Below, in pieces: positions 10 to 46,900 of a stretch of 64,000 nucleotides of DNA. The stretch is from contig JBQCHE010000020.1 in the NCBI GenBank assembly GCA_051954975.1, positions 64,841-128,840 on the forward strand, read 5' to 3'. The translations under genes and the position numbers were made by a program. Within the stretch, counting starts at the first letter, position 1, and each line of letters begins with the position of its first letter. This stretch comes from Ginsengibacter sp. (GTDB taxonomy: Bacteria; Bacteroidota; Bacteroidia; Chitinophagales; Chitinophagaceae). The notes beneath the pieces were generated by a model. That model worked only from the letters and a program-made list of their open reading frames with translations, had not been told where the DNA came from and searched no databases.

Positions 10-80
10 GGTCTCGTGGCCGAGTGGTGAGGCAGAGCTCTGCAAAAGCTTCCACAGCGGTTCGAATCCGCTCGAGACCT
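10..80 (+). tRNA. tRNA-Cys (anticodon GCA)
   Basis: Hand-folded cloverleaf: acceptor ggtctcg/cgagacc, anticodon stem gagct/agctt with loop cTGCAaa, T arm agcgg-ttcgaat-ccgct. 71 nt, CCA not encoded. Confidence 0.85.
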
Positions 81-2001: not shown

Positions 2002-2967
2002 TTACCAGGTTCGTTTGCTCATTATCTCATCAAGCTGTGCTTTGCTCATCTTCCCTAATTCCGGATGCTGTTGCAACCATTTGAGAAAACTTTGTTTTAT
2101 GTCTTCTGTCCATTGATTATCTATCTGACCGGTCGAGTACCGGTTGGACCGCACCATCTCAAATCCAAATTTATCTTTGAGCACCACAAATTCTGAAGTA
2201 CTGATTACCAGTTCTGCCAGATGAGCAGGAATAAACAGCACACCTTCTTTTTCCGCTATCACAAGGTCTCCAGGCAACACAATGGCGCCTCCAATTCTAA
2301 TGGGCGTATTGAGTCCCATGAGTACCATTCCTTCCAAAAAGGAGGGATGAAAATCGCGTACAAAAGCATTGAATCCTTTTATTTCTGAAAGCCCTTGCAA
2401 ATCCCGCGCAGCCCCATTGAAAACCACGCCGTTTCCTGATTTGCTGTATATCGAATTTCCAAGTGTGCTTCCCATCAGGGTGCCGGCGTCTATTTTTCCA
2501 AATCCGTCTGCCACATATACATCGCCTTTTGACAGCACATCTATTGGCCATGAATTGGTATTGCCTGATCTCCCCTGCTTTAACCCGCGATCTTTAATGC
2601 TCTTTTCTACATCGGGGCGGCTTGGCATAAACGCTGCTGTAAGGGCGCGCCCAATCACCGGAATACTATCGTTTATCATTTTCCATCCGGACTCAAACTG
2701 ATGGGTATAGCCTAAATTTTTTAATACCGTCCATGCATCGTCTATGCCGATAGCTCTGGCTCGCATCAATAAATCATCAGCAATTTTTGGCCGCCCGTCT
2801 GTGAATCTTTCTCCCTTCCATTCCGAGGTCAAAAAAACAAGCTCACTTCTTGCAATAGTTTGGGACAACAGGAAATGACCATTGAAAAAAAATGTGAATA
2901 AAACTGCAAGTATGAAACATTTCTTCTTCATTTTTTTAAATGTATATTTTAAAAAAAACGCCAGCAT
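2002..2967 (-). CDS. Secreted RraA-fold protein (RraA / HMG-CHA aldolase family), paralog 1
   Basis: Core GDVYVADGFG...GTLMGSTLGNSIYSKSGNGVVFNGAARDL matches the RraA/aldolase fold signature. Hydrophobic signal KKCFILAVLFTFFFNGHFLLSQ; the likely true start is the internal Met at 2931. About 320 aa versus about 160 aa for canonical RraA. Confidence 0.7.
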   Translation of the reverse strand: MLAFFLKYTFKKMKKKCFILAVLFTFFFNGHFLLSQTIARSELVFLTSEWKGERFTDGRPKIADDLLMRARAIGIDDAWTVLKNLGYTHQFESGWKMINDSIPVIGRALTAAFMPSRPDVEKSIKDRGLKQGRSGNTNSWPIDVLSKGDVYVADGFGKIDAGTLMGSTLGNSIYSKSGNGVVFNGAARDLQGLSEIKGFNAFVRDFHPSFLEGMVLMGLNTPIRIGGAIVLPGDLVIAEKEGVLFIPAHLAELVISTSEFVVLKDKFGFEMVRSNRYSTGQIDNQWTEDIKQSFLKWLQQHPELGKMSKAQLDEIMSKRTW

Positions 2968-2979
2968 TAGTCTATATAT

Positions 2980-3636
2980 TTAAGGAACACGAACTTTTAT
3001 TACTATTTTTTTGACACTATCATATCCTTCCATTTTAAAAGCCGGACGATGAATTTCCTGTGGCGAAAAAATAAAAAAAGTACCAGGGCCGGCATCATAA
3101 TATTTGCCGTTTGAAACTGAAAATGCTTCATTGTCATCAGGTGTATAAGAAGTAATTACCTTAACACCAGAATCGGTTATCGGCACAATTCCCATTTCTG
3201 TTTTACCCTGGATAATATATTGAAGATCATTAAAATTCCTGTGGGCTTCCCAATGAGTGCTATCCTTTTCTTTCGGAACGCCAACTGAAACAGTAGCAAT
3301 TACGTTATTGCTGTCTATAACATACCTGCCGGGCTCTAAAGTGTTCAAATCCTTACTTTTTAAAAACCCAAAAGCTTCATTCCACCATTTTGGATTTTTC
3401 TGATATTGTTTTAAAAATTCAGATTTGTTGATGCTTTCATGAGGAGTTATATTGAGCCCTTTATACCAATCCTCGTTTGTGTACCAATCAGCACTATTCT
3501 CATCCTCTTTAACTTTTGGATTATTGGAACAAGCTGTAAAAATCAATGAAATAATTACCAATGAAATAATTACCAACACGGTTGTCATCCTAAATTTTTT
3601 CATAAATAATCTTTTTTTTATCCTCAATAGAGTCAA
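2980..3636 (-). CDS. YhcH/YjgK/YiaL (DUF386) family lipoprotein
   Basis: The cupin-like core ...HWEAHRNFNDLQYIIQGKTEMGI... is typical of DUF386. Lipoprotein-type signal ending IFTAC; the likely start is an internal Met (3603 or 3588). Confidence 0.7.
   Translation of the reverse strand: MTLLRIKKRLFMKKFRMTTVLVIISLVIISLIFTACSNNPKVKEDENSADWYTNEDWYKGLNITPHESINKSEFLKQYQKNPKWWNEAFGFLKSKDLNTLEPGRYVIDSNNVIATVSVGVPKEKDSTHWEAHRNFNDLQYIIQGKTEMGIVPITDSGVKVITSYTPDDNEAFSVSNGKYYDAGPGTFFIFSPQEIHRPAFKMEGYDSVKKIVIKVRVP
3544..3573. repeat. Perfect 15-bp tandem duplication (caatgaaataattac x2) inside the YhcH-family signal-peptide coding region
   Basis: Read directly: 3544-3558 is identical to 3559-3573. On the minus strand it encodes VIISL-VIISL in the hydrophobic core of the signal peptide. 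Confidence 0.95.
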
Positions 3637-3766
3637 ATCCTAACCTTTCACGTTGACGGTTCCAGGCTACTTTATTTAAAAGAAGTTTCTATGCCCCGCA
3701 ACGGTTAGAAATAAATCAATTAAGATAGAATTTTAATAAAAACTTTTCGCCTTCCATATCGGGGGT

Positions 3767-3907
3767 TTATTTTTCATTATCCTCTTTAGCACTTTTAAAT
3801 TCTTTTATTCCTTTTCCGATTCCTTGCATTAAATGAGGAATTTTTCTTCCACCAAAAAATAAGAGGATTACAAGAAATATTAAAATCCATTCTGCCCCGC
3901 CAGGCAT
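3767..3907 (-). CDS. tatA: Twin-arginine translocase subunit TatA/E (small ORF absent from the >=60 aa track)
   Basis: Manual translation of the minus strand gives MPGGAEWILIFLVILLFFGGRKIPHLMQGIGKGIKEFKSAKEDNEK. It has one TM helix, the FGG-(R/K)K-(I/L)P hinge and an amphipathic helix, which are the TatA hallmarks. An alternative upstream ATG at 3946 would give 59 aa. Confidence 0.8.
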   Translation of the reverse strand: MPGGAEWILIFLVILLFFGGRKIPHLMQGIGKGIKEFKSAKEDNEK

Positions 3908-4000
3908 TGTAAACAAAAAGTTGTTTTTTAATAAAATATTATTCATTTGAAATGTATTAAAATAAACCTAATCTTCAGTAAACAAACAAATAAGTAGCTT

Positions 4001-5557
4001 TTATTTTGCATAGGGTTGAGGCCTTGTAATTTCGGTACCTCCTGTTGTCCTTCCACTCCATAAAAAATCACTTGAATTTGAATTATTCCATTCCGGGGTT
4101 GGAGCAAAATAACCAGGATGCCTGGGATCAAGATGCTTCTTAACCACCTCATCATTTAATTCAACGCCTAAGCCCGGAGCACTGAGTGGAACATGGGCAA
4201 ACCCCTTATCGAATATTTTAAATCCACCTTTTGTTTTTACCAGGTCTTCCCACCAGGGATTGTCTAAGGAGCCATTATTGGGCATTTCCAGCGAAAGCAT
4301 GTTGTTAGTTGCAGCAGCACAATGTACGTTTGCCATAAAAGAGACTGGTGAGCCGGCAAAATGCATGATCATCGGAATACCTTTTGATTCGGCATAATCA
4401 CCTATAATTTTTGTTTCTAAAATACCACCAGAAGAGGCAAGATCCGGTTGCACGATATCTACGGCATTGTTATCTATCAGTTTAAAAAATTTTTCTTTAA
4501 GATAAATGTCCTCTCCGGTTAACGTCGGTGTTTCGATTGCGTCTGTAACTGCTTTCCACTGATCAATATAATCCATAGGGAAAAAATCTTCCAGCCATGC
4601 AAGGCGATAAGGATCCAGCGCTTTTCCTACCCGGATTGCATTATTTACATCATAGTTACCAAAGCCATCTGAACCAAGAGGAATATCCCAACCAATGACA
4701 CTTCGAACCATATCAACATATTTGGCAAGTTCATCCAGTCCCTTGTCCGTAATCTGCATTTGATAAAAAGGTTGTTTAATTCTTAAATCACCAGTTAAAA
4801 TGGGAGAATAACTGTTTCTGTATTCAGGAGTGTACCAAAACTTGTCATTTACTGTTGTTCCGGGAATATCGGCGATCCAATCAATTGAAGGATACATTTT
4901 AAACCAGGTAATACCCAGTTTTTCCTTGCGGAAATTTATTTCTTCTTTAAACTTCTCTACATCCATTAGTCTGCCATTATGCCTTGGAACATAAGCGTAC
5001 ATTCTTATCTTATCTCTGTATCTTCCACCTAATAATTGCCATACGGGCACTCCATAAGCCTTCCCGGTTAAATCCCAAAGCGCCATTTCTACTCCTGAAA
5101 CTCCTCCTCCCTGCCTTGATTGTCCGCCAAATTGTTTTATCAGCCTAAACAACATTTCGACGTTGCAGGGATTCTGCCCCAATAAACGGCTTTTCAATAT
5201 CAAAGCGTACCTCCAATCTGCACCGTCTCTTACTTCTCCCAAACCATAAATACCCTGGTTCGTATCAATTCGAATAATAGGTCTTTGATTGGCGACAACA
5301 CAATACCTCATATCTGTAATTTTTAAGTCGGAAGGACTTGAAAACCGTTTCACTTTTGATGTAGTTTGTGCGATGGTATCTCCTATTGGCAGGTTCATTA
5401 AACCTACGAGGGATAAGCCACCTAGCGTCGCTTTTTTCAGAAAGCTACGCCGGTCGTCTGAGGTACCAGGATTATTTTCTTCAATTTTCATTTCTTCCAG
5501 ATATAATCTCTCTTCTTCTTTGCTTTTTTCAATAATTTGATCAATAATTCTTTTCAT
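4001..5557 (-). CDS. Enolase-superfamily enzyme (mandelate racemase/muconate lactonizing family, acid-sugar dehydratase-like) with twin-arginine signal
   Basis: VEMALWDLTGKAYGVPVWQLLGG is the MR/MLE N-domain motif. Candidate metal ligands lie in LGSDGFG, AWLEDFFP and LTGEDIY. The Tat motif DDRRSFLKKATLGGLSLVGL is near consensus; the probable start is the internal Met at 5491. Confidence 0.8.
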   Translation of the reverse strand: MKRIIDQIIEKSKEEERLYLEEMKIEENNPGTSDDRRSFLKKATLGGLSLVGLMNLPIGDTIAQTTSKVKRFSSPSDLKITDMRYCVVANQRPIIRIDTNQGIYGLGEVRDGADWRYALILKSRLLGQNPCNVEMLFRLIKQFGGQSRQGGGVSGVEMALWDLTGKAYGVPVWQLLGGRYRDKIRMYAYVPRHNGRLMDVEKFKEEINFRKEKLGITWFKMYPSIDWIADIPGTTVNDKFWYTPEYRNSYSPILTGDLRIKQPFYQMQITDKGLDELAKYVDMVRSVIGWDIPLGSDGFGNYDVNNAIRVGKALDPYRLAWLEDFFPMDYIDQWKAVTDAIETPTLTGEDIYLKEKFFKLIDNNAVDIVQPDLASSGGILETKIIGDYAESKGIPMIMHFAGSPVSFMANVHCAAATNNMLSLEMPNNGSLDNPWWEDLVKTKGGFKIFDKGFAHVPLSAPGLGVELNDEVVKKHLDPRHPGYFAPTPEWNNSNSSDFLWSGRTTGGTEITRPQPYAK

Positions 5558-5608
5558 AATAATTAATTGTTAGTTTAAAAAATTTGTATCAGTGTTATTT
5601 TATTTAGT

Positions 5609-6571
5609 TTATTTACTCTCCTTATTTAGATATTCTTCAACTTCTTTTGAAGTAATAGCTGTTTTCTTTGAATATTTCAAAAACCATTTTCGAAATTCAT
5701 TTTTCATATTTTCTGACCAGTCACCATGTACTTCACCCGAAGGATATTTTGCTAATTGCAACATATATCTTTCAAATTCATCTTTCAGGGCGATCATTTC
5801 TGAACTGGTAACCAAAGGTTCTACTAAATAAGGCGGTATAAAAGCAACGCCGTAATCATTGGCAAATACCACATCTCCCGGAAACACCGTTGCTTCCCCT
5901 ATCCTTATCGGTGCATTTATCGACACAGGTGTCATATCCTGTATGTATGAGGGATCATTGCCTTTAATCCATGCGTTAAATCCCTTGGTGTCCTTAAGTT
6001 CCTGCATATCTCTTATGGATCCAAAAAATACAACTCCCTGTCCGGTTTTTCCATAAATGGCATTTCCGAGGCTTGAACCTATCAAGGTGCCATTCTTTAT
6101 TTTCCCAAATCCATCAGCAACATAAATATCATTAGTAGTGAGAACATCAATTGGCCAGGTATTAATTCCTCCATGTTGAGATTTGCCTTCTCTTTTACCT
6201 GCATTACGAATAAGGGAATCGAGATCCGGCCTCGACGGCATAAACTGAGTGGTAACTGCACGCCCAACCATGATTTCACCCGGCTTTAAAATTTGCCAGT
6301 TTTTTTCTATTTGGTTGTGAAACCCTCTTCTGTATAAATAGCCCCAAATTTGTTCCAGGGTGCAATTTTTTAGCCTTTGCAAAAGATCGTCAGGAACCTT
6401 CGGTCTTCCGTCTGCAAATCTTTCGCCTTTCCATGTTGAGGTTATTGCAATTATATTTTCAGACGGCGTACTGACGTGTTGAGCATATATACTAAACGGG
6501 AAGACAAAGAAAAATATAATTACAGCAATCAATTTCATCATAAAATTTGCATTTGTTTTTTTAATATTCAA
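5609..6571 (-). CDS. Secreted RraA-fold protein, paralog 2
   Basis: NDIYVADGFGKIKNGTLIGSSLGNAIYGKTGQGVVFFGSIRDM. It is collinear with the 2002-2967 product along its whole length, roughly half the residues identical by eye. Signal peptide LIAVIIFFFVFPFSIYAQ. Confidence 0.7.
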   Translation of the reverse strand: MNIKKTNANFMMKLIAVIIFFFVFPFSIYAQHVSTPSENIIAITSTWKGERFADGRPKVPDDLLQRLKNCTLEQIWGYLYRRGFHNQIEKNWQILKPGEIMVGRAVTTQFMPSRPDLDSLIRNAGKREGKSQHGGINTWPIDVLTTNDIYVADGFGKIKNGTLIGSSLGNAIYGKTGQGVVFFGSIRDMQELKDTKGFNAWIKGNDPSYIQDMTPVSINAPIRIGEATVFPGDVVFANDYGVAFIPPYLVEPLVTSSEMIALKDEFERYMLQLAKYPSGEVHGDWSENMKNEFRKWFLKYSKKTAITSKEVEEYLNKESK

Positions 6572-6596: not shown

Positions 6597-7628
6597 CTAT
6601 TTTGGTACTGCGTTTTTATTTATATATTGCTGCAACTTATTTGCCTCAAGGTCATTCGATGCTAAATCTTTAATATAGTGAAAACGTTCGGCCCATTCGA
6701 GACCATATTGTTTTCCTAATTCTCTATTTGAAATTTGAGTAAAATTCAAGCGACGGGCATCAATATCAAAAACGAAATGTTTTACATAATTAAAATCTGC
6801 TTTGCTATCGTCATCGCCCAAGATTGTCAATTTTTTACCCTCCTTTGCCAATTTCTCTTTTAGTTTTCTTCCGGCCCCTTGTCCGGCTGGACCTTTTGTA
6901 GTATTCAGCATATTTACTTCAACCTTTTTATCAATATAATTGCTGATATCTACTATCCGGTTAACTCGCTGAGGATCCCTGGAGAAATAATATCTTTCTT
7001 TGGGGCTATGAGGTTTCAAACCTGCATCCAAATGTTCAGGATAGTCAGTGGCCATCCCTGCCATCCATCTCGCAGCTTCTACCGCATGTGCTGTTGCAAT
7101 GTGATCGGGATTCTCTTCATAATGTTCCCACGGGTCCCAGGTGATAACTGTATCAACTTTTAATAACCTGAATAAAAAAATCAGCCGGCCCTTAAGATCC
7201 TGGATTTGTATGCTATCCATCCGGTGATGAGGATACATGAAATCATAACCTTTTCCCATGCCGTAATACCTGGCAATTTTTGCGTTATCTTGTTTGTTAC
7301 CCTCCACGTCACCACTGGAATCATCAGAAGTTCGAAGCAGGTAACCAGTGTACCCTTCATCCAAAAGTTTCGCAACAGTGCCACCGGCAAACAATGGAAT
7401 ATCGTCTGAATGCGCCTGAATTGCCAGTAACACCTTGCCTTTATGTGGCTTTCCTGTCACATGTCGCTCTATAACAATTTCTTCCGGATCGCCTACAATG
7501 CCGTTTGGATCTTTTTTTACTAACTTTTCCTGGGTGCTTTTATTAACATCCAGTCCGAGAGTGAATAATGAGCTCCCGACTAGAGCACTGGATAATAAAC
7601 CCTTATGCAAAAAATCTTTCCTTTTCAT
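6597..7628 (-). CDS. PIG-L/LmbE family deacetylase, exported
   Basis: The motif LLAIQAHSDDIPLFAGG(T) corresponds to the AHPDD(E) zinc-deacetylase signature. N-terminal signal-like region KDFLHKGLLSSALVGSSLFTLG. Confidence 0.75.
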   Translation of the reverse strand: MKRKDFLHKGLLSSALVGSSLFTLGLDVNKSTQEKLVKKDPNGIVGDPEEIVIERHVTGKPHKGKVLLAIQAHSDDIPLFAGGTVAKLLDEGYTGYLLRTSDDSSGDVEGNKQDNAKIARYYGMGKGYDFMYPHHRMDSIQIQDLKGRLIFLFRLLKVDTVITWDPWEHYEENPDHIATAHAVEAARWMAGMATDYPEHLDAGLKPHSPKERYYFSRDPQRVNRIVDISNYIDKKVEVNMLNTTKGPAGQGAGRKLKEKLAKEGKKLTILGDDDSKADFNYVKHFVFDIDARRLNFTQISNRELGKQYGLEWAERFHYIKDLASNDLEANKLQQYINKNAVPK

Positions 7629-7667: not shown

Positions 7668-9206
7668 TTATTTCACATCCCAAAAAACTCTTGTTGCCAT
7701 GTTGTCTGCTCCCATACGCGCAACCGCATCTTTATAATTTTCGGCGTTTACCGAAATTTCCCTTGCCGGGTATTGCAGCCGGTGAATAAAATCTCCTTTT
7801 ACTACAGGGTCCGCACCCGGGTATGGGTTTGGTTCTAATTGTGGAAAGCCAGATCTTCTGAAATTAGCCCAGCCTTCAGACCCGTTTAAAAATGACGAGA
7901 TCCAGTATTGTGTATTTATTTGTTCGATAGCGTCAGCGGGATTAAACGGATTTGCATTGAGGTATGCATTTTGTAATGCCTGTGCGATTGCTGCAGACTG
8001 ATCATATTGTAGCATTTGATCCATGTGTGCTTTTACTCCGGCATTGTAATGAATTTCAGGATCCCCGCTAATCCACCCCCGTTGGGCGGCTTCGGCAAGT
8101 AATAGTTGAGTTTGAGAATGCGTTATAAAAAATTCCGGGGCATCTATTTTTGCCAACGTTTTACGATTTAACTGCGAATACTTCCAGGCAGCACCAATTT
8201 TTCCGGGATAGTTAGGTTCACTACTAATCGTAGCGTCATTATATCCATATGGCATTCCTTGCTGATGCTGCGGCTCAGTATCTTCTGATCCGGCAGTACC
8301 TATAGGATTTGCAGGAATTTCATACTTAACCGCAATTACCTTTAAACGTGGATCATCCACACTTTTCAAATAGTCAATGAAAGGCTTTGCCAGGTAAAAA
8401 TTCGCCCGTTCACTTCCCTGGAAAGTGCTTGCATTAGGATGATTAAACACGCTGTTAAAAGGAACAAACGCATTATCTGAATTCGATTCAATCAATCCAC
8501 CCCGGCCTATATCGGTAGCCAGCGTCACATATTGCTTTGCTTTACCAGGATTGACTTTTGTAAATCGCATGGCAACCCTTAATAATAATGAGTTCCCTAA
8601 TTTTTTCCATTTAGAAATATTGCCTTTATAAAAAAGATCATTCGATTCAATTTTTTTACCTGCATCCAACTTATTTGTGGCATCAACCAGTTCCTTTAGC
8701 AAGTCGTCATAAATTTCCTCGTCAGAATCATATTTAGGAAGATTTATTCCTTCAAGATACGCTGCTCCCGCTGTAAAATACGGCACGTAGCCATACGTAT
8801 CCACCAAAACCTGGAATACATGACAACGCCAGATCCGCGCCATATTATACAAATTAGACCTGGACGGGTCATCCTTTGTTTGATGTAATATATTGGTAAG
8901 CGATTTTACTGGTCCTGTATATAGGGACGTAAAAGCAGATCCGACATTGTTTGCAAAAAACCAAACGTTATGATTTCCCCCTTCCAAAACCCCTGTGAAC
9001 GGGGTAATAATTTGTTGAACAATTTCTGCCTGGTATTGAATCGTATAAATTGCAGAAGTTAGCTGGGCGTCCGCAAACAAATAAGATGGATCCAAAGAAG
9101 TCGGTAACACCGGATTTGTATTCACCTTTTCAAACCCTTTGTCACATCCAGACGTGCCAATTAAACAAATAAACAGCACCCAAATGAATTTAGTCATTCT
9201 TTTCAT
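7668..9206 (-). CDS. SusD/RagB family nutrient-binding outer-membrane lipoprotein
   Basis: About 510 aa, lipobox LIGTSGC, immediately downstream of the SusC-like gene (22 bp from the likely start at 9206; the longest ORF starts at 9242). Confidence 0.8.
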   Translation of the reverse strand: MKRMTKFIWVLFICLIGTSGCDKGFEKVNTNPVLPTSLDPSYLFADAQLTSAIYTIQYQAEIVQQIITPFTGVLEGGNHNVWFFANNVGSAFTSLYTGPVKSLTNILHQTKDDPSRSNLYNMARIWRCHVFQVLVDTYGYVPYFTAGAAYLEGINLPKYDSDEEIYDDLLKELVDATNKLDAGKKIESNDLFYKGNISKWKKLGNSLLLRVAMRFTKVNPGKAKQYVTLATDIGRGGLIESNSDNAFVPFNSVFNHPNASTFQGSERANFYLAKPFIDYLKSVDDPRLKVIAVKYEIPANPIGTAGSEDTEPQHQQGMPYGYNDATISSEPNYPGKIGAAWKYSQLNRKTLAKIDAPEFFITHSQTQLLLAEAAQRGWISGDPEIHYNAGVKAHMDQMLQYDQSAAIAQALQNAYLNANPFNPADAIEQINTQYWISSFLNGSEGWANFRRSGFPQLEPNPYPGADPVVKGDFIHRLQYPAREISVNAENYKDAVARMGADNMATRVFWDVK

Positions 9207-9228
9207 TTTGATATTTTTTAAAGCGGTT

Positions 9229-12200
9229 TTAAAATCTTGCATTAAGGTTTATGCCATAGGTACGGGTAGTAGGCAGAGAATGAGTATCAAGCCCCTGGAA
9301 GTTATCCGATACAGAAATTTGTGATTCGGGGTCCAAATTATCCAGATACTTTTTGATCATTAAGGGATTGTTCACAAATGCTGAAACCACTAAAGCTTTT
9401 ACAGGTGTCTTTTTTACAAAAGAAGTCAGATCATAACCCAGTGAAACAGTTCTTAACCGAACAAAACTGGCATTGTAAACAAAAGGCTCACCCAGATTGC
9501 GTAACGAAGCATAAAACTCCTCAGCTGGTACAGCAACCGAATTTGATGTACCATCCGCGTTGTAACCTTTAAATACGACTCCTTCTTCTCTTCCTTCTAA
9601 TGAAGCTTTTGATAAGCCATGTCTTAAGAAATTAAAATTTGAATTTGAAAGTACCACGGCACCAGCCTTAAAATCTATTTGAGTGAAAAGTCTAAAAGCT
9701 TTATAGTTAATACTATTCGTCCAGCCTCCGGTCCATTTTGGAATGGCGCTCCCATAAGTTTTTAATTCGCCTAATAATGGTTTTCCTCCTGCTGTTAAAA
9801 TATTGCCTTTTGCATCTCTTTTATAATCAAAGGCTCTCACAGAAGCAAGCGGCAGTCCAACTTCATGGGAAATAATTCCGAAATATTGACCTACTCCAAC
9901 ATCAAAGGAATTCTGACCATTTGCCAGCGCAAGAACTTCACTTCTATTGTATGCTGCATTAAAACCGCTTTCCCAGTTTATTTTTCCTTTAATAGGAAAA
10001 ACAGTTAGTAATAATTCGACCCCTTCATTTTTTAGCTTCCCGATATTAACCTTTGTCTGGGTATATCCTGATGCTTCTGAGATGTTTACGTCCAAAATTT
10101 CATCAACAGTATTTTTCCGGTAGAGAGAGAAGTTCAAATTAACTCGATTGTTAAACATCCGAAGGTCCATTCCCACTTCTGTTTCCCGAACTTTTAATGG
10201 ACGTAAATTTGAATTGGGACTCACTGATGAGTTAATAGTTCCGAGTGCAATAGTATTTAAAGGATTAGGATTGATTGAATAATAAAGCGCATTGGTATAA
10301 GGGTCCGTATCTCCCCCAACCTCTGCATAAGCAGCGCGCAGCTTCCCATAATTCAACCACGATGGTTTTGTAGAAAAAATATCTGTAAAAACAAAACTAC
10401 CGTTTACGGAAGGGTATAAATAACTATTCGATTTTGGATTTAAGGTAGAGAACCAGTCATTCCGGGCTGTTAAATTGAGGAAAAGAAAATCTTTAAAGGA
10501 GAACTCAGCTGATCCATACAAAGAATTTACCCTCTTTTTACTGAAATCATAATCTGGGTTTTTTATTTGTCCATTACCAATTGTATACAGCCCTCTGACA
10601 TAGAAGTTGGTAACACTCGTACTAAGGCGATCAAATGTCTGCTGCATCTGATTTCCTCCAACCGTTATATCCATGAGGAAATTATTAAACTTATGGTTTG
10701 CTCCAACCAGAAAATCAATATTTCTTTCCCTGAATGTCGTTACATCCTGGTAATAATAGCCATTAAACCCCGAAACTGCAGTACTTAAGTTTCGGGACCC
10801 AGTAGGACGATTAAATTCATAGGGTCGGGTATAATAATCCTGTCCAATCCTGCCCTGCATATAAAGCCAGTCTGATAGTTGATACCGGATAGATGCATTT
10901 CCAAAAATTCTATCTCTTCTAATATTTTCAAAATGTTCATAAGCAACCCAATACGGATTATTTCTGCCTGTGAAACGCGCTAAAGGCATTTCATTTCCAT
11001 TAGAATCTTTGTAATTCTTTAACGAGTTTACATCAATACTATTTGCCATAGTATAAATGGTCGTGTTTACACTGAATCCTTCAATTCCAATCTGAGGAGG
11101 GTTATGATTGTATTCATTTGAATAATTTGCATTTACCTGCGTTGATAATTTAGGAGTCAGGTTATAATTTATGGCCAGGTTCAAAATCTTTTTATGGAAA
11201 TCAGAATTTGGAACAATTCCGATTGCATCTGTATTAGAAAATGAAATGCGGAAATTACCGCGGTCATAGCCGCCTGACAGAGCCACTGAATTAGTGGAAT
11301 TAAATCCCGGTCTATAAAATTCTCTTATACGGTTTTTATGAGGACTATAAGGCTTGAGAGTCCCGTCTGACTGAGGAGTTAACTTATTGTCGAATTTTTC
11401 TCCAAAGCTCCATATACCTGAACTCTGTGCTTCGGCAACCGTTGTAGGTCTTACCCCATTTTCCCCCTGTCCATACTCATATTGAAAGTCGGTAAAATCC
11501 AGTGCGGTTGAAAGCTGATTGTTAGTATTAAATTCAATCCCTATCCCTTTATGTTTGCTACCTGATTTGGTAGTAATAATTATAGCACCATCCTTCGCCC
11601 TGTAACCATAGAGGGCAGCGGCGGCAGCGCCTTTTAAAACAGTCATAGATTCAATATCATCCGGATTGATGCTTTGCAAGCCGTCTCCGCCATCAGAGGA
11701 TCCACCGGTTGGATTATCTGAATTTTTATAACCGGCAGAAATACTGGTGTTATTTATGGGTATTCCATTTACTATAATTAAAGGTGAATTATCGCCACCA
11801 AATGATGATTGGCCTCTAATCCGAATTTTGGCTGAGCCTCCGGGTCCACTTGTTGGAGCAGAAACATTTACTCCCGCCACCTTTCCAACCAAACTATTTC
11901 CCACATTCGTTGCACGGTCTGTTGTAATTTGATCGGTATTTACAACTCCCGTAGAATACCCAAGACTTCTGGCCTCCCTTTTTATTCCTAAAGCAGTTAC
12001 AACAACTTCATTTAATTTTGTGGCTTCTTCCTTTAAAACTATATTTAGTTCTGTACGATTATTTAAACTTATTTCTTGTGTGATAAATCCCACATATGAA
12101 AAGATTAAAAGCCCGTTTGCAGGAACATTGATTGAATATCTTCCTTTCGAATCTGTTGAGGTACCAATATTTGTTCCTTGCAGCGCAACACTTACTCCAA

Positions 12201-12600
12201 CCAATGGTTCTCCTTTTGAATTAGTAACGATACCGGTCACAATATTTAAAGGAACTGTTTGAATTGAAGAAACTGTTTGGTTTTCTTTTCTCTGTCCATA
12301 TTGGACCGGCTTTTCTCTTATTACTACGGTATTATCAAAAATTCTGTAAGTCAAAGGTTGGTTTGTAAAGCAGAGTTTCAAAACTTCATCTACAGGAGCT
12401 TGTGTTACCTGTAACGTAACAGGAGAGGCCTTTTCTAATATGTTCGTTTCATAAAGAAATGTGAAGCCCGTTTGATATTCGATTTTCTTAAGTACTTTCT
12501 CAAGTCTCGTTTTATTTTCATTAAGCGTAACTTTTTGAGCAACTACTTCTGCACTTACCTTGATGCAGGCAAAAAGCATTAAGCATGTTGTCAGTTTCAT
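9229..12600 (-). CDS. SusC-like TonB-dependent receptor with N-terminal STN signalling domain
   Basis: STN-like LEKVLKKIEYQTGFTFLYETNILEKASPVTLQV..., then a CarboxypepD_reg-like IVTGIVTNSKGEPLVGVSV, a plug (VVVTALGIKRE), a long beta-barrel and a C-terminal ...YGINLNARF. The likely start is the Met at 12600 (signal MKLTTCLMLFACIKVSA); the longest ORF reaches 12696. Confidence 0.9.
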   Translation of the reverse strand: MKLTTCLMLFACIKVSAEVVAQKVTLNENKTRLEKVLKKIEYQTGFTFLYETNILEKASPVTLQVTQAPVDEVLKLCFTNQPLTYRIFDNTVVIREKPVQYGQRKENQTVSSIQTVPLNIVTGIVTNSKGEPLVGVSVALQGTNIGTSTDSKGRYSINVPANGLLIFSYVGFITQEISLNNRTELNIVLKEEATKLNEVVVTALGIKREARSLGYSTGVVNTDQITTDRATNVGNSLVGKVAGVNVSAPTSGPGGSAKIRIRGQSSFGGDNSPLIIVNGIPINNTSISAGYKNSDNPTGGSSDGGDGLQSINPDDIESMTVLKGAAAAALYGYRAKDGAIIITTKSGSKHKGIGIEFNTNNQLSTALDFTDFQYEYGQGENGVRPTTVAEAQSSGIWSFGEKFDNKLTPQSDGTLKPYSPHKNRIREFYRPGFNSTNSVALSGGYDRGNFRISFSNTDAIGIVPNSDFHKKILNLAINYNLTPKLSTQVNANYSNEYNHNPPQIGIEGFSVNTTIYTMANSIDVNSLKNYKDSNGNEMPLARFTGRNNPYWVAYEHFENIRRDRIFGNASIRYQLSDWLYMQGRIGQDYYTRPYEFNRPTGSRNLSTAVSGFNGYYYQDVTTFRERNIDFLVGANHKFNNFLMDITVGGNQMQQTFDRLSTSVTNFYVRGLYTIGNGQIKNPDYDFSKKRVNSLYGSAEFSFKDFLFLNLTARNDWFSTLNPKSNSYLYPSVNGSFVFTDIFSTKPSWLNYGKLRAAYAEVGGDTDPYTNALYYSINPNPLNTIALGTINSSVSPNSNLRPLKVRETEVGMDLRMFNNRVNLNFSLYRKNTVDEILDVNISEASGYTQTKVNIGKLKNEGVELLLTVFPIKGKINWESGFNAAYNRSEVLALANGQNSFDVGVGQYFGIISHEVGLPLASVRAFDYKRDAKGNILTAGGKPLLGELKTYGSAIPKWTGGWTNSINYKAFRLFTQIDFKAGAVVLSNSNFNFLRHGLSKASLEGREEGVVFKGYNADGTSNSVAVPAEEFYASLRNLGEPFVYNASFVRLRTVSLGYDLTSFVKKTPVKALVVSAFVNNPLMIKKYLDNLDPESQISVSDNFQGLDTHSLPTTRTYGINLNARF

Positions 12601-12743
12601 GATTAATAAAATTTTGATTAAACAGAGACTCCTCAGGCAAGAGGTTTTGTAGTTAGGAAGCAATTCCATAGCTTTGATTCGTTTTTGGTGAAACAATAAT
12701 GATACTAACGGTTTTATTTTTGAATAGCCTAAACATTTTACGG

Positions 12744-12814: not shown

Positions 12815-14017
12815 CTAATTTTCTGATATTATAATTTTTTTATCAACAATTTGCATACTTACGCCTGTATATTGCAGCATTGTTATTAACTCGCTTAGCT
12901 TTAGGTTTCTGCTGATTTTGCCTGTGAACCGGCGCTTCGGAATCGAACCTTTATATTCTACCTGCACATCATACCATCTTGAAAGCTGCCGCATAATATT
13001 CTGAACGTCGGCATTATTAAATTCAAAATTGTTATTCTTCCACGCAATTGCTTCATCGGTGTTAGCGTGCTGGTTAATTTTTAAAGTCCCTGATTTACTT
13101 AGGTTTGCTTGTTCACCGGGAGATAATGTGACAGTTTGGTTAACTGCATTTTCCGATGGTGCACTTTTTATTTTTACCGAGCCCTCTAATAATGTAGTTG
13201 CCACAACGCTTTCATCCGCATAGGCATTTACGTTAAAATGTGTTCCCAGTACTTCTATAGTCATATCATTGACCTTTACCTGAAAAGGCATTGATGAATT
13301 TTTCGCAATTTCAAAATATCCCTCACCGGTTAAAGTGACCTCCCTGTGTTTGCCCCGGAAAGATGCCGGATATTTTAATGAGGATTCGGCATTGAGCCAT
13401 ACTCTTGAACCGTCAGATAACACAATCTCATACTTTCCCCCACGAGGTGTGGATATTGTATTTAATCCCCATCCCTCTGCTCTTTTCTGATCTAAATCAT
13501 ACAATATCTGGCCATCTTCTCCTTTTATAATTTTGATATTTCCTTGTCTTGTAAGTATTCCATTTTTTGCTGTGTTCAAATCAATCATAGATCCATCAGC
13601 GAGCGTAAGCGTAGCCTTATTAGAACCGGGAAGCGCATCACTGGAAGAAACACCTATCGTTTGCTTTGGATTTTTCACAACCACAGTATCAATATTTCTA
13701 TTAGACATCCTGGTAAAAACATAAAACACGCTAGAAAAAACAAATGCAATCAAAATTGCCGCAGCCGATACTTTTACATAAACTTTATCCACGAACCTGA
13801 TTTTATTACCACTTCGTTTATTTTCTAAAATATTCCTCCAGATATCGTCCCGAATGTCATGCTTTAAATGTTCCTTTTGTTCTGAGGTAAGCAGTTCCAT
13901 TACATCTGGATTATTTTCAAAAAGGTTGTAATAGCTTATTATTAATTGATCTTCCTCACCGGTAGTTTTTCCTTGTTGATATTTGTTCAATAACTTTAAA
14001 AAATAACCTTTGTCCAT
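12815..14017 (-). CDS. FecR-family transmembrane anti-sigma factor
   Basis: 400 aa with a cytoplasmic N-terminus, a single TM (AAILIAFVFSSVFYVF) and a periplasmic FecR-like domain (...LTGEGYFEIAK...VLGTHFNVNAY...). It lies between an ECF sigma gene and an STN-bearing SusC. Confidence 0.85.
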   Translation of the reverse strand: MDKGYFLKLLNKYQQGKTTGEEDQLIISYYNLFENNPDVMELLTSEQKEHLKHDIRDDIWRNILENKRSGNKIRFVDKVYVKVSAAAILIAFVFSSVFYVFTRMSNRNIDTVVVKNPKQTIGVSSSDALPGSNKATLTLADGSMIDLNTAKNGILTRQGNIKIIKGEDGQILYDLDQKRAEGWGLNTISTPRGGKYEIVLSDGSRVWLNAESSLKYPASFRGKHREVTLTGEGYFEIAKNSSMPFQVKVNDMTIEVLGTHFNVNAYADESVVATTLLEGSVKIKSAPSENAVNQTVTLSPGEQANLSKSGTLKINQHANTDEAIAWKNNNFEFNNADVQNIMRQLSRWYDVQVEYKGSIPKRRFTGKISRNLKLSELITMLQYTGVSMQIVDKKIIISEN

Positions 14018-14338: not shown

Positions 14339-14926
14339 TTAGGAATTTGCAACGATTATCACTAAATAAAATAAACGCAATAAAGAAACTTTCAGAGTTT
14401 CTATTGCTTTACCCAGTTGGTTTTGGACAGTCTTTATGGTGATTCCCAATTGTTTTGCAATTTCTTTGGTACGCAGATCCTCATGGAAACGTAATTTAAA
14501 AATTTCCTGCCTTTTTGGAGGTAATGACTGCACTATTGCATCATATGACTGGAAAAAATCTTTCCAGAGCAAATTGGAATCGGCTCCGCCGGTTTCAACT
14601 GAAACATTTTCAAGAAGATCGAAAAAAGGGTGGGTAACTTTCTGTTTTGTTACCAACTTGATCACTTTGTTCCGGACAGCTACATGTAAATAAGCAGCCA
14701 GATTGTCAATGTGGGTTGTTTCCCTGTTAAACCAGATATGAGAGAATATATCCTGCACAATATCTTTTGCATCATCATGATTTCCCAAACGCTTATATGC
14801 ATCAGCGTAGGCTTTCTGCCAGTATTTTTCGAACAGCGTATCGAAGGCACGGGTATTCCCTTCCTGCAGTAGCCGAAGTAGTAAAATATCAGAACTTTGA
14901 CTTAATTCATTTTCGTGCATAAGCAA
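14339..14926 (-). CDS. ECF-type RNA polymerase sigma-70 family factor
   Basis: 195 aa with region 2 (AKDIVQDIFSHIW) and a region 4 HTH (TKEIAKQLGITIKTVQNQLGKA). Confidence 0.85.
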   Translation of the reverse strand: MLMHENELSQSSDILLLRLLQEGNTRAFDTLFEKYWQKAYADAYKRLGNHDDAKDIVQDIFSHIWFNRETTHIDNLAAYLHVAVRNKVIKLVTKQKVTHPFFDLLENVSVETGGADSNLLWKDFFQSYDAIVQSLPPKRQEIFKLRFHEDLRTKEIAKQLGITIKTVQNQLGKAIETLKVSLLRLFYLVIIVANS

Positions 14927-15400: not shown

Positions 15401-17332
15401 TTACCAAACTTTAATCTTTTGTTTCCCCGAATCCTTGATTTCAAAAGGTCCTGGGGAGGGGTTTTCAATGTTACGCTTTTTACCGAGGTAATCTATACCA
15501 ATGCGGAGCGCAGAGCCATCCACATTTTCAAAGGGAAGGCCAGGAACAATCGCTTTAGTTAGCCTTTCAGTGGTTACCAGCTTGCGTTTCTGATTCAACC
15601 AATTTTTTTCAAAAGAAATTTGGAGGTACAAGTCTTTACCCTGCTGCACCAAATTGACGACAGCATCAAAATTATTATCCACCAAAGGATTCGTTTCGGT
15701 AGCTACATGTTCTTTATATTCTTTCATTTGCTTCTCTGCGTTTTTGTTCAGCTCACCAAATTTGTACTGGCTATTGTTTTTCACGGCTCCAACGGCTCCA
15801 TTAGTATAGACATTTCCTTTAAAAATAACGGGCAGCAGCGCATTGTTATACTGGCTGGCATCTGCTCCATTGACAAACAGGTTGTTTATAAATTGAACAT
15901 CTCCACTCGGATTATCATGAAGTGCCACTACATAAGTAGAATGCGGCTTCATATATGGCGTTAGTCTTGCGTCGTAATGAATAACGTCTATTTTGCCCGC
16001 AAATAAATTGTGCACGAAAGCAGCGCCGCTGGAGTTCATTAAAAGATTGTTTTTCGATAATAAAATATTGTTGCATACCAACATCGGCCCATGATCCACT
16101 TCCAAAAAGATGTCTGTGGAATTGTCATTCATTAAATTACCTTTTATCTGTGCACCCTGCGCCATCCAGTCGAGCCATATTCCGGCAACGCCGCCTACAC
16201 GATAAATATGATTGTGCTCAATTTGTACATCTACTGCACCATGAAATTTAATACCTGCCATTTCCGCTCCTGTGAATAAGCGATGCACATAAATATCGTG
16301 TATGGTGTTTCCTTCTATTGTACTGAAAGAACAACCCATACTGCCTACAATGCCGGTTTGTTCGCAATAAGCAATTGTGTTGTTGCGAACAATATGCCCA
16401 CCAATGGTACCTTTGTTCCATCCAAAAGCTAACGCTCTTTTGATGGTGCCTACATATCCTTCGGCTGATTCAGCGCTCGTGTTATCGAATTCATCGCCAT
16501 ATTTACCTAATGCGATACCGGAACATTTGGAATATTCAATGGTATTATTTTCGATAATCCAGCCGCGACTCCAATGGGTGCCAATCAATCCCATTTGTTC
16601 TGCCGTTGGCGGCGCCCAGTTGGTAGCGGCTTGCTCCATGGTAAAGCCACGAACGGTAATGAAATTTATGAATGGCTTGTCGGGATAAAAAACGGTTGGA
16701 CGAACATTAATTTCTACCAGTTCTTTATTAGGATCAGCATCCTTAAATTGTGCCCACATGGTTGTAGTAGCCGAATCCACTTCTGCCCACCAAAGCGGAT
16801 TTTTTTCATCCCCATTAGCCATCACCTCTTGTTTTTTTGCTGCTTCCATCAGCCAATGGCCGTTTAGATAAACGGCTCCCCGGTGGTATTTCCGGCCTTC
16901 CGGCGTAGGCGTGAACCAATCACCCTGAATTAATTCTTTATACGGATTAAAATCCTTAAAAAATGTATTGGGAATTTTTACCGCCCATGTGTCGTTGTCT
17001 AATTTTTTCCAGCCTTTTATAATTTCTGAACCTTTTATTACAACCTTTTCGCGAGCGGCCGCTTCATAAACAATCCGTTCTGAATTGGAATTTCCTCCGC
17101 GTGGTGGCGTGATTTGCTCCCGGTAGGTTCCTGCATGAACAAGCACAGTATCGCCAGGCATAGCCAAATTCGCAGCCGCTGAAATAGTTTTTAGCGGTTT
17201 GGATAAAGAGCCATTATTGTGGTCATCACCATTTACCGAAACGTGGTATTTCGTTTGGGGTAAAGTAGATTTTTGTTGTGCTGAAACGGCCACTGTACTT
17301 AAAACAAACGCGCTGATTAGAAATTTTTTCAT
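15401..17332 (-). CDS. Secreted right-handed parallel beta-helix repeat protein (possible polysaccharide lyase/hydrolase)
   Basis: Signal MKKFLISAFVLSTVAVSAQQ (start at 17332; the longest ORF starts at 17434). N-terminal YHVSVNGDDHNNGSLSKPLKTISAAANLAMPGDTVLVHAGTY, then repeated NNTI/GNTI/HNHI turns typical of beta-helix CAZyme folds. Confidence 0.65.
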   Translation of the reverse strand: MKKFLISAFVLSTVAVSAQQKSTLPQTKYHVSVNGDDHNNGSLSKPLKTISAAANLAMPGDTVLVHAGTYREQITPPRGGNSNSERIVYEAAAREKVVIKGSEIIKGWKKLDNDTWAVKIPNTFFKDFNPYKELIQGDWFTPTPEGRKYHRGAVYLNGHWLMEAAKKQEVMANGDEKNPLWWAEVDSATTTMWAQFKDADPNKELVEINVRPTVFYPDKPFINFITVRGFTMEQAATNWAPPTAEQMGLIGTHWSRGWIIENNTIEYSKCSGIALGKYGDEFDNTSAESAEGYVGTIKRALAFGWNKGTIGGHIVRNNTIAYCEQTGIVGSMGCSFSTIEGNTIHDIYVHRLFTGAEMAGIKFHGAVDVQIEHNHIYRVGGVAGIWLDWMAQGAQIKGNLMNDNSTDIFLEVDHGPMLVCNNILLSKNNLLMNSSGAAFVHNLFAGKIDVIHYDARLTPYMKPHSTYVVALHDNPSGDVQFINNLFVNGADASQYNNALLPVIFKGNVYTNGAVGAVKNNSQYKFGELNKNAEKQMKEYKEHVATETNPLVDNNFDAVVNLVQQGKDLYLQISFEKNWLNQKRKLVTTERLTKAIVPGLPFENVDGSALRIGIDYLGKKRNIENPSPGPFEIKDSGKQKIKVW

Positions 17333-17401
17333 GGTTTCTGACTTGGATATTATCAATAATTCAGTTTTTTGTAACCTCGATGAATTTATTTCTTTTTCCC
17401 C

Positions 17402-17454
17402 AAAACAAAAAAGCTGTTTCGAAAGCGAAAACAAAAATCACTTTTGAAACAGCT
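17402..17454 (-). terminator. Rho-independent terminator of htpG
   Basis: Stem agctgtttcgaaag/cttttgaaacagct (one mismatch). On the minus strand it is followed by TTTTTTGTTTTG. Confidence 0.65.
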
Positions 17455-19559: not shown

Positions 19560-19632
19560 GGCCCCGTAGCTCAGTGGATAGAGCAACAGCCTTCTAAGCT
19601 GTGGGTCGAACGTTCGAGTCGTTCCGGGGTCA
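19560..19632 (+). tRNA. tRNA-Arg (anticodon TCT)
   Basis: Acceptor ggccccg/cggggtc (one G-U pair), D arm gctcagtggatagagc, anticodon stem acagc/gctgt with loop cTTCTaa, T arm gaacg-ttcgagt-cgttc. 73 nt. Confidence 0.85.
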
Positions 19633-25168: not shown

Positions 25169-25822
25169 TCAGAATTGTATATCCGGAATTTCTCCTTCGA
25201 CAATTACATTCGCTTCTGTTTTACTCTTGATTTCTTCCACAGATACGCCGCTCGCTTTTTCCAACAGCCGAAAGCCATTGCCTGCAACTTCCAATACGGC
25301 AAGATCCGTTACAATTTTTTTTACACAATTAATTCCAGTCAGTGGCAGCCGGCATTTTTTTAATAATTTGGATTCTCCCTTAGAGTTGGTGTGCATCATG
25401 GCAACAATAATATTTTTTGCGCTGGCTACCAGGTCCATTGCGCCGCCCATTCCTTTTACCAATTTTCCGGGAATTTTCCAACTGGCAATATCGCCGTTTT
25501 CACTCACTTCCATTGCACCTAAAACAGTCAAATCCACCTTGCCGGCGCGAATCATTCCAAAGCTCATGGCGCTGTCAAAAAAGGAGGAGCCTGGCAAAGT
25601 GGTAATAGTTTCCTTGCCGGCATTTATCAGGTCGGGATCTTCTTGGCCTTCGAACGGAAATGGACCCATTCCAAGCAAACCGTTCTCAGATTGAAGGGTA
25701 ACATTAATTCCATTAGGGATAAAATTAGCCACAAGTGTGGGAATGCCGATTCCGAGGTTCACATAATATCCATCCTTTAACTCCCTGGCGATTCTTTGCG
25801 CAATTTGATTTTTATCTAACAT
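25169..25822 (-). CDS. scoB: 3-oxoacid CoA-transferase subunit B
   Basis: 217 aa. ...LQSENGLLGMGP... contains the conserved SENG active-site glutamate motif, and the gene is adjacent to subunit A. Confidence 0.88.
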   Translation of the reverse strand: MLDKNQIAQRIARELKDGYYVNLGIGIPTLVANFIPNGINVTLQSENGLLGMGPFPFEGQEDPDLINAGKETITTLPGSSFFDSAMSFGMIRAGKVDLTVLGAMEVSENGDIASWKIPGKLVKGMGGAMDLVASAKNIIVAMMHTNSKGESKLLKKCRLPLTGINCVKKIVTDLAVLEVAGNGFRLLEKASGVSVEEIKSKTEANVIVEGEIPDIQF

Positions 25823-25887
25823 GGCCCGTGAAAATTTTAAAAATGTAAATCTGATATTGCCAATTCCGGAATAAAAAAGCAGGAAAT

Positions 25888-44602: not shown

Positions 44603-44798
44603 CAGTTTCACATTTTACCAATTAACTGCGCATGTACCGATTCTTCGAAAAAATAATAGCGAAGCTAAAATTTAACCAGATTCACTATCCGGATTTTACA
44701 CGCCCAACGTTGTCGGCGCCCAATCATTTTAAACAGTGGCTATATTTGCGAAATAAGGATAGTAACCTAAATTGAAATGAATCAAAAAAAATTACAAC

Positions 44799-46888: not shown

Positions 46889-46900
46889 GAGGTAGGAAGG

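Follow-up and report, generated by a model that had tools for sequence, protein, structure and literature searches.

The window, by which we mean the whole stretch of 64,000 nucleotides of Ginsengibacter sp. DNA analysed here, carries an operon in which two genes for RraA-fold proteins, here named A (open reading frame 2002-2967) and B (5609-6571), stand on either side of a gene for a dehydratase-like enzyme (4001-5557, hereafter the dehydratase). The first-pass annotation of this DNA had proposed that the three products form a non-phosphorylative dehydratase-then-aldolase route in the periplasm. The evidence gathered here points to a periplasmic route of acid-sugar conversion in soil Bacteroidota that has not been described before. 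All genes of the operon lie on the minus strand and make up one apparent transcription unit, from the gene of an extracytoplasmic function (ECF) sigma factor down to that of a transporter of the major facilitator superfamily (MFS), in the order ECF sigma, anti-sigma, SusC, SusD, PIG-L, B, dehydratase, TatA, DUF386 lipoprotein, A and MFS.

For comparison we used a genome scan that gave 80 loci carrying a B ortholog, in genomes of Chitinophagales, Cytophagales and Sphingobacteriales; single related loci are cited by L numbers. The first gene of the regulatory pair encodes the ECF sigma factor (14339-14926; Pfam Sigma70_r2 and Sigma70_r4_2), which has an ortholog in the same place in L003 and L004, and the second encodes a FecR-type anti-sigma factor (12815-14017; Pfam FecR and FecR_C). 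They are followed by a SusC-type TonB-dependent transporter with an N-terminal STN signalling domain (9229-12696; Pfam STN, CarboxypepD_reg and Plug), whose orthologs in related loci are 46-90% identical, and by a SusD-like outer-membrane lipoprotein (7668-9242; Pfam SusD-like_2, E 2e-80). Between SusD and B lies a PIG-L/LmbE-type de-N-acetylase (6597-7628; Pfam PIG-L, E 3e-12), a gene seen among the related loci in the window, L003 and L004 only. Its product has an export-like N-terminal segment, KRKDFLHKGLLSSALVGS, in which the motif resembling a twin-arginine translocation (Tat) signal reads RK instead of RR, which makes its export route uncertain.

Between the two RraA-fold genes, the first-pass annotation had correctly seen a dehydratase and had missed its Tat signal, a TatA gene and a DUF386 lipoprotein gene. 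The TatA/E translocase subunit (3767-3907; 46 amino acids; Pfam TatA_B_E, E 4e-13), MPGGAEWILIFLVILLFFGGRKIPHLMQGIGKGIKEFKSAKEDNEK, fills the 364-nucleotide "gap" between the dehydratase and DUF386 genes, directly downstream of the dehydratase with its Tat signal; no TatA gene was found at the equivalent position in any of the 91 related loci examined. The lipoprotein of the DUF386/YhcH family (2980-3636; probable start 3603, lipobox LIFTAC; Pfam DUF386, E 9e-31) passes the NCBIfam cutoff for YhcH/YjgK/YiaL and scores 61 bits, below cutoff, against the N-acetylneuraminate anomerase model; a DUF386 gene also adjoins B in L003, L044 and L055. Beyond A, the operon ends with an MFS transporter of the anion:cation symporter type, similar to D-galactonate transporters (630-1931; Pfam MFS_1). 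It reaches 269 bits against NCBIfam TIGR00893, missing the cutoff of 395, and is presumed to import the periplasmic product.

A Pfam survey of the operon found no glycoside hydrolase, lyase or esterase between the ECF sigma and MFS genes. The sole gene near the operon that resembles one for a carbohydrate-active enzyme (CAZyme) is at 15401-17434 on the same (minus) strand, a short way upstream of the ECF sigma gene; its product, of 677 amino acids, combines a GH120 insertion domain with a right-handed beta-helix and DUF1565. The nearest named relatives of the operon proteins are from Ginsengibacter and Segetibacter (Chitinophagaceae). Rfam models detected only two tRNAs in the window, at 10-80 (plus) and 19560-19632 (plus), the first of which is just past the MFS gene at the operon end. 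Promoter and terminator scans of the window gave results near background.

RraA-fold paralogs and the dehydratase

The first-pass annotation had read A and B as paralogs with the RraA fold, and this is borne out by several lines of evidence. Both open reading frames are present on the minus strand, their products are 44% identical over 280 residues (E 3e-95), and both match the Pfam RraA-like family PF03737 (E 1.6e-17 and 64.5 bits for A, E 1.6e-16 and 61.3 bits for B, against a cutoff of 24.5 bits). The AlphaFold model of B, with a predicted local distance difference test score (pLDDT) of 90, confirms the fold. When this model was used as a Foldseek query, all matches with E <=1e-8 were RraA-fold entries and no other fold appeared; these were RraAS2 (5x15), HMG/CHA aldolase (3noj; substrates 4-hydroxy-4-methyl-2-oxoglutarate and 4-carboxy-4-hydroxy-2-oxoadipate), 3k4i, 5ir2 and Yer010c, then short RraAs. 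The core motif quoted earlier for the two proteins is correct overall, but in B it begins with ND and not with GD.

The lengths of 321 and 320 amino acids given to A and B rest on the most upstream start codons. Orthologs, together with an identical database protein (P0001, 310 amino acids), indicate that the likely precursors are about 309 amino acids for A (start 2931) and 310 for B (start 6541). The earlier description of the two as double-length proteins of about 320 amino acids holds relative to the 161-amino-acid RraA only, since the extensions are common to RraAS2 (270 amino acids) and to FlDet of Flavobacterium (237 amino acids). Both of these align across the N- and C-terminal extensions of A and B, which thus belong to an existing long-form clade of 237-270 amino acids. 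The clade of A and B is set apart by its signal peptide, by some 20 conserved residues that come after the signal (W.GERF.DGRPKV) and by a short C-terminal tail.

Both proteins are predicted to be exported to the periplasm. B has a predicted Sec signal, MMKLIAVIIFFFVFPFSIYA, with the junction before Q, and A one that ends in LLS before QT. A hydrophobic N-terminal segment was predicted in 142 of 149 orthologs (67 of 69 for A, 75 of 80 for B), followed by an invariant junction of Ala or Ser with Gln, and the same two features are seen in distant family members. Bacteroidetes favour Gln after the signal-peptidase I site, which the junction fits. Cleavable signals on A and B, as claimed from the first reading of this DNA, are therefore well supported at the level of prediction.

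The catalytic positions of the two proteins were compared with those of HMG/CHA aldolase, in which Arg123 is essential and stabilises the pyruvate enolate, and Asp124 and Glu199 bind the metal (PMC5065237). R187 and D188 of B (positions in both paralogs are given in B numbering) align to Arg123 and Asp124, and neither varies among 81 B and 70 A sequences; the same is true of N137, G165, P207-S208, N219 and the acidic D264. E191 is invariant in the 81 B orthologs and is Glu in 63 of the 70 A orthologs, forming the motif R-D-x-x-E. From this conservation both paralogs look catalytic.

The gene between them is indeed dehydratase-like. Its product is a homolog of acid-sugar dehydratases of the enolase superfamily, similar to the mandelate racemase subgroup, with an N-terminal capping domain and a C-terminal barrel (Pfam MR_MLE_N and MR_MLE_C). 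Its three metal ligands (D297, E323 and E349) and its D372/H399 dyad do not vary among 50 orthologs, and they align to 2qq6, the best match in the PDB. The best NCBIfam match, galactonate dehydratase, gives 170 bits and misses the cutoff of 311; no cutoff was reached by the protein among the equivalogs for named dehydratases (galactonate, gluconate, mannonate, arabinonate, rhamnonate and talarate/galactarate). None of the 50 orthologs keeps the D-x-H histidine that is canonical in galactonate-type dehydratases; Phe, Tyr or Gln stands in its place. At the first metal-ligand strand, residues 296-303 read (S/A)DGFGNYD in the window, L003 and L004, versus ADHFGHFD in 47 of the 50 orthologs. The N-terminus carries a strong predicted Tat signal, DRRSFLKKATLGGLSLVG, with the motif DRRSFLKK and a hydrophobic stretch, and RR is kept in 54 of 55 enolase-type relatives, so that the dehydratase is predicted to be exported by Tat. 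Taken together, the Tat signal of the dehydratase, the Sec signals of A and B, the lipobox of the DUF386 protein and the export-like N-terminus of the PIG-L protein lead to the prediction that every enzyme of the operon leaves the cytoplasm.

Related loci in other genomes

Among the loci with room for A, 66 of 78 have A directly after B, which suggests that the two have long been inherited together. The arrangement on which the first-pass annotation had built, with the paralogs bracketing a dehydratase gene, is real in the window but rare; we found it elsewhere only in two Ginsengibacter metagenome-assembled genomes, the usual order being a B-A tandem. The coupling of RraA-fold and dehydratase genes recurs in most of the related loci. 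A Tat-exported sugar-acid dehydratase is encoded within 7 kb in 42 of the 53 loci with enough flank (35 enolase-type, 9 UxuA-type, 2 both), and the RR motif is present in 25 of 25 UxuA-type copies. The association extends to members at 27-42% identity, including one in Acidobacteriota: a Terracidiphilus protein (42% identity) is encoded among two Tat-enolases, Tat-UxuA-like and Tat-TIM-barrel genes and an MFS gene, and the gene of another distant member (27%) adjoins an enolase-type gene. As the dehydratases are of two unrelated folds, the link appears to be their shared product, a 2-keto-3-deoxy acid, and not protein binding.

Genes for uptake and for further conversion recur around the pair. 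MFS transporters of the anion:cation symporter type are encoded in about 15 loci, where orthologs of the window transporter (72-91% identity) come after A, and SBF-family transporters in 8. SusC/SusD pairs with ECF/FecR regulators were found in about 17 loci, and no glycoside hydrolase was found in the related SusCD loci that carry B/A. Lipoproteins of the DUF4440 family and DUF386 proteins also recur. In Spirosoma and Larkinella, the module is reduced to three genes, with the dehydratase divergent from B-A and without SusCD. Four loci (L031, L035, L053 and L055, for example L055:4165-6431) encode a third secreted RraA-fold paralog, C, paired with a second Tat-enolase that has the canonical DMHG motif, with an SBF transporter and a cytoplasmic gene of the fumarylacetoacetate hydrolase (FAH) family alongside.

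A lipoprotein dehydrogenase with pyrroloquinoline quinone (PQQ) and cytochrome c domains is encoded in 11 loci. It is a beta-propeller protein of about 730 amino acids with an inserted cytochrome c domain, and its gene stands beside the B/A pair in L007, L019, L029, L050, L065, L090 and others, accompanied there by one or two genes for Tat-exported UxuA-like dehydratases. A secreted protein of about 328 amino acids without a Pfam match recurs in 5 loci (for example L017:13505-14491).

Several related loci also encode cytoplasmic enzymes. In L044 (Sphingobacteriaceae, with B and A) and L090 (Flavobacteriaceae, with a single RraA-fold gene), the genes that follow are SBF-DUF4440-PfkB-Eda, that is, an importer and then a kinase of the 2-keto-3-deoxygluconate (KDG) type and an aldolase of the KDPG (2-keto-3-deoxy-6-phosphogluconate) type. 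A cytoplasmic HpcH aldolase is encoded in L085 and in the Terracidiphilus locus, and a cytoplasmic FAH-family enzyme in L039, L053 and L055. L039 further carries an alpha-ketoglutaric semialdehyde (alpha-KGSA) dehydrogenase similar to FlDeg (60% identity; about 6 kb from B/A) and an IlvD-like dehydratase beside an enolase-MFS pair; it was the only locus with a FlDeg homolog, and no aldehyde dehydrogenase gene was found in the window operon. The presence of PfkB/Eda, FAH, HpcH and alpha-KGSA dehydrogenase genes implies transport of alpha-KGSA or of the intact keto-deoxy acid across the inner membrane.

Proposed pathway and its alternatives

On the basis of these sequence comparisons we are firm in regarding A and B as predicted periplasmic, catalytic 2-oxo-acid lyases that are metabolically coupled to exported sugar-acid dehydratases, and they most likely act on the 2-keto-3-deoxy product of the dehydratase. 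For the locus as a whole, we propose, with a rough probability of 0.55, a SusC/SusD uptake operon under ECF-sigma/anti-sigma control whose exported acid-sugar conversion module would work as follows. An acidic, possibly N-acetylated sugar or short glycan would enter via SusCD, and the PIG-L enzyme would take off the acetyl group. The Tat-exported enzyme of the enolase superfamily, whose catalytic residues are present, would abstract the proton alpha to the carboxylate and eliminate the 3-substituent, yielding a 2-keto-3-deoxy acid. The DUF386 lipoprotein may aid ring-chain or anomer interconversion, like its relative NanQ for sialic acid. In A and B, possibly as a mixed oligomer, Mg2+ on Asp188 would bind the 2-oxo-acid head group and Arg187 would stabilise the C3 enolate. 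From this enolate, loss of the 4-hydroxyl, alone or together with CO2, could yield a 2,5-dioxo acid, for instance alpha-KGSA, as in FlDet, or the C3-C4 bond could be broken, as in HMG/CHA aldolase. The small oxo-acid anion would then be imported by the adjoining MFS transporter. Elimination and aldol cleavage share the Mg2+-bound C3 enolate, and the sequence cannot by itself choose between them; the FlDet-type elimination is slightly preferred, and an enolase-type dehydratase of an aldarate pathway together with a FlDet-like enzyme would make a coherent two-step elimination.

A number of observations weigh against this proposal. The identity of A and B to FlDet is only 26-27%, too low for transfer of the reaction. 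Position 166, which aligns to Asp102 of the aldolase (the D of the D-X20-R-D spacing), holds Ser throughout B and either Ala or Ser in A, and Asp is kept there in FlDet, RraAS2, paralog C and HMG/CHA aldolase. Of the aldolase residues, which the first-pass annotation had wanted inspected, the Arg and the metal-binding Asp stand in all 151 sequences and the Asp102 equivalent does not. The A protein of the window has Gly at position 191 (R-D-L-Q-G), lacks the R-D-x-x-E motif that could serve as an alternative, and is thereby one of the 7 of 70 A sequences without Glu191, together with L003, L005, L008, L010, L013 and L055. In the dehydratase of the window, two conserved His beside the metal-binding Asp are replaced by Gly and Asn, and together with Gly191 of A these losses suggest that this copy may have diverged in function. 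B occurs without A in about 15% to a fifth of the loci, and for this reason an obligatory A-B heteromer was rejected. L044 has B, A and DUF386 without any dehydratase gene within 10 kb, which means that A and B must be able to handle a substrate that arrives as, or can be converted to, a 2-keto-3-deoxy acid. Finally, the cytoplasmic FAH, alpha-KGSA dehydrogenase, PfkB/Eda and HpcH enzymes could perform the steps after the dehydratase, in which case the RraA-fold step in the periplasm would have no defined role.

The altered dehydratase motif, Gly191 in A, Ser/Ala at position 166 and the PIG-L and TatA genes, limited to this small clade or to this genome, make a shift of substrate possible, and the operon of the Ginsengibacter type may have moved to another compound, perhaps an N-acetylated amino-acid sugar. 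As substrates we considered glucarate, glucosaminate, oxidised chito-oligosaccharides and nonulosonic acids; each fits some of the genes (PIG-L, DUF386, MFS type) and none was adopted.

The closest competitor to the proposed pathway, which we hold to be possible but clearly the less probable of the two, takes A and B to be metal-dependent pyruvate aldolases of class II that would cleave their substrate in the periplasm to pyruvate and an aldehyde; the route would then be extracytoplasmic and non-phosphorylative throughout. A and B share their fold and the Arg-Asp pair with HMG/CHA aldolase, and the coupling to dehydratases that yield 4-hydroxy-2-oxo acids is robust. In addition, SBF-family importers, whose plant relatives carry pyruvate and glycolate, recur in related loci, the PQQ-cytochrome c dehydrogenases found there could oxidise a released aldehyde, and an aldolase in need of the open-chain keto form would be well served by a DUF386 protein of the sialic-acid anomerase type. 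HMG/CHA aldolase is, however, more distant than FlDet (70 versus 127 bits), the position of Asp102 is not conserved, and the equivalog cutoffs for LigK/HMG aldolases are missed widely by A and B (40.1 and 34.9 versus 304.5 bits for TIGR02798, 41.4 and 35.7 versus 179 bits for NF006731). The adjoining MFS transporter is moreover of a sugar-acid (galactonate/glucarate) type, and the SBF-DUF4440-PfkB-Eda strings in L044 and L090 and HpcH in L085 imply import of the intact 2-keto-3-deoxy acid. A terminal periplasmic aldolase would make such cytoplasmic consumers redundant, and the PfkB/Eda, FAH and HpcH genes thus appear to argue against it. Of the route first proposed for this DNA, the export, the enzymatic instead of regulatory role and the dehydratase coupling have good support from conservation and are retained, and the aldol step is the part that homology does not favour.

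A bolder idea, which we consider doubtful, is that A and B act on glycan-bound or oxidised sugars, for example by glycosyl elimination from a dehydrated aldonic or unsaturated-uronate end or by opening of an aldonolactone. The SusCD loci with B/A lack glycoside hydrolases and lyases and instead have PQQ dehydrogenase, Tat-dehydratases, DUF386 and DUF4440; in L044, B, A and DUF386 are followed by SBF-PfkB-Eda without a dehydratase; and export of all the enzymes would be sensible if the substrate could not cross the inner membrane. Activity on cellulosic substrates has also been reported, with weak documentation, for the RraA-like protein HLB5 (bioRxiv 10.1101/516542). If so, it is conceivable, at similarly long odds, that a polysaccharide utilization locus (PUL) without hydrolases is a non-hydrolytic cleavage pathway of oxidation, dehydration and elimination, and a periplasmic route of this kind for acid-sugar-terminated or oxidised glycans at the hydrolase-free B/A SusCD loci is no more probable. 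There, the PQQ-cytochrome c dehydrogenase, where present, would oxidise the reducing or acidic end, the Tat-exported enolase- or UxuA-type enzyme would dehydrate the oxidised end, and the RraA-fold pair would eliminate the remaining glycosyl or hydroxyl group via the enolate, freeing a small oxo-acid for import. The proposal is purely inferential and such chemistry has no known precedent in the RraA fold; in Spirosoma and Larkinella the three-gene module often stands by itself, without SusCD. Some SusCD pairs serve monomeric acid sugars (NanOU, for sialic acid), so that the lack of hydrolases at a locus does not have to mean that glycans are cleaved there.

That A and B are instead non-catalytic partners of the exported dehydratase (inhibitors, chaperones or stabilising subunits), as RraA and RraAS2 are for RNase E and ES, seems improbable to us. 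RraAS2 is an equally close homolog (124 bits) and is described as an RNase ES inhibitor in the title of PDB 5x15, and loss of the Asp102 equivalent and, in the A protein of the window, of Glu191 would be in line with such a role. Yet the Arg-Asp pair and about ten further residues of the pocket region are invariant across 151 sequences, partners of two unrelated folds (enolase and UxuA) are hard to square with a specific interface, and B and A are present in some loci without any dehydratase. Least probable of all is a misprediction of the signal peptides, in which case A and B would stay in the cytoplasm as ordinary RNase E regulators of the RraA type or as aldolases. There is ambiguity in the upstream start codons, but the hydrophobic N-terminus with its junction is conserved in nearly all orthologs and in distant members, and every co-encoded enzyme also has an export signal. 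Scores against RraA equivalogs are far under cutoff (27.8 bits for A and 27.7 for B versus 136 for NF006875; 17 versus 241 bits for TIGR02998). The export signals and these scores led us to rule out a role as RNase regulators, in agreement with the first-pass annotation, which had excluded regulation of RNase E for proteins predicted to be periplasmic.

If the proposed periplasmic conversion is true, it would represent an unrecognised extracytoplasmic stage of acid-sugar catabolism in Bacteroidota and Acidobacteriota of soil and water, carried out in part by relatives of enolase-superfamily and UxuA-family dehydratases, which are textbook cytoplasmic enzymes. It would also define a class of SusCD loci without CAZymes that is now ignored or misclassified by PUL prediction, with a possible link to what becomes of oxidised sugars in soil, among them gluconate, aldarates and the aldonic ends derived from lytic polysaccharide monooxygenases. 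The non-hydrolytic glycan route, if that were true instead, would give the RraA fold a novel enzymatic function and add a new type of PUL. The routine annotation of RraA-family genes is "regulator of RNase E" or "HMG aldolase", and the secreted clade comprises at least 8,000 candidates, all so named.

Two further groups of genes in the window were recorded. At 42638-48304 (plus) are genes for a heparinase II/III-like protein, a short-chain dehydrogenase/reductase, a weakly GH88-like protein and a DUF2264 protein, and this cluster looks like an unsaturated-uronate locus. At 25169-26616 (minus) are two adjacent genes for coenzyme A-transferase subunits (Pfam CoA_trans), unrelated to the RraA-fold operon.

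Nearest known systems

Searches of the full-text literature open to us found no description of secreted RraA-family proteins, of enolase- or UxuA-type dehydratases exported by Tat, or of SusCD loci that lack hydrolases and have this composition. The operon is compared here with characterised proteins and pathways one by one. In hmmsearch with the family profile, FlDet scores 126.8 bits, RraAS2 124, HMG/CHA aldolase 70 and RraA proteins 25-56. FlDet, from Flavobacterium sp. UMI-01, has been purified and characterised and converts 2-keto-3-deoxy-glucarate to alpha-KGSA by dehydration/decarboxylation (PMC8563752). Its residues 8-236 align to profile positions 56-290, with an hhalign probability of 99.8%, and it shares with A and B the R-D pair, the P-S active-site loop motif, the C-terminal helical extension and the phylum. 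Its substrate is a 2-keto-3-deoxy acid sugar, the type of product made by enolase-superfamily aldarate dehydratases. FlDet differs in being cytoplasmic (native N-terminus Met1), in its length of 237 amino acids, in having Asp where A and B have Ser/Ala and in being encoded by a single gene beside those for alpha-KGSA dehydrogenase and an alginate lyase, whereas A and B have the signal peptide, the W.GERF.DGRPKV segment and the tail and stand as a conserved pair beside dehydratases exported by Tat.

RraAS2 of Streptomyces coelicolor (270 amino acids) is the best Foldseek match (E 3.7e-14, TM 0.88 on the target) and aligns to profile positions 55-290, N- and C-terminal extensions included. Unlike A and B, it is cytoplasmic and has Asp at the 102-equivalent position, and it is described as an inhibitor of RNase ES; we know of no dehydratase context for it. 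HMG/CHA aldolase (LigK/ProA), a class II pyruvate aldolase and oxaloacetate decarboxylase, is alike in fold, in Arg123 and Asp124 and in an acidic residue near Glu199. It differs in its lower profile score, its place in the cytoplasm, its role in aromatic meta-cleavage pathways, its Asp102, replaced by Ser/Ala in A and B, and its active-site loop Gly144-Lys147, where A and B have the P-S loop instead. RraA of the E. coli type shares the Pfam family and the core alpha-beta-beta-alpha sandwich; it is, however, a cytoplasmic protein of 161 amino acids without the extensions, and its target is absent from the periplasm. HLB5 (PDB 5ir2), a cytoplasmic protein of 247 amino acids from a xylanase/glucuronidase cluster of Parabacteroides johnsonii that was published as a "novel cellulase", may, by analogy with FlDet and with the family of A and B, be an acid-sugar enzyme instead of a cellulase.

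As pathways, the glucarate/galactarate route (GudD/GarD, KdgD, alpha-KGSA dehydrogenase) and the pentonate routes of the Weimberg type are alike in having two successive eliminations, the first by an enolase-superfamily enzyme, and in the classical aldarate pathway it is such a dehydratase that makes 2-keto-3-deoxy-glucarate. A further link is that genes for alpha-KGSA dehydrogenase and FAH-family enzymes occur in related loci. These pathways are cytoplasmic and have a second dehydratase of the dihydrodipicolinate synthase or FAH family, whereas in the pathway proposed here steps one and two would take place in the periplasm, with an RraA-fold second enzyme. With the PULs of Bacteroidota, finally, the operon has in common the SusC/SusD pair, control by ECF sigma and anti-sigma factors and the STN domain; it differs from them in having no glycoside hydrolase, lyase or esterase and in encoding, in their place, small-molecule acid-sugar enzymes with export signals.

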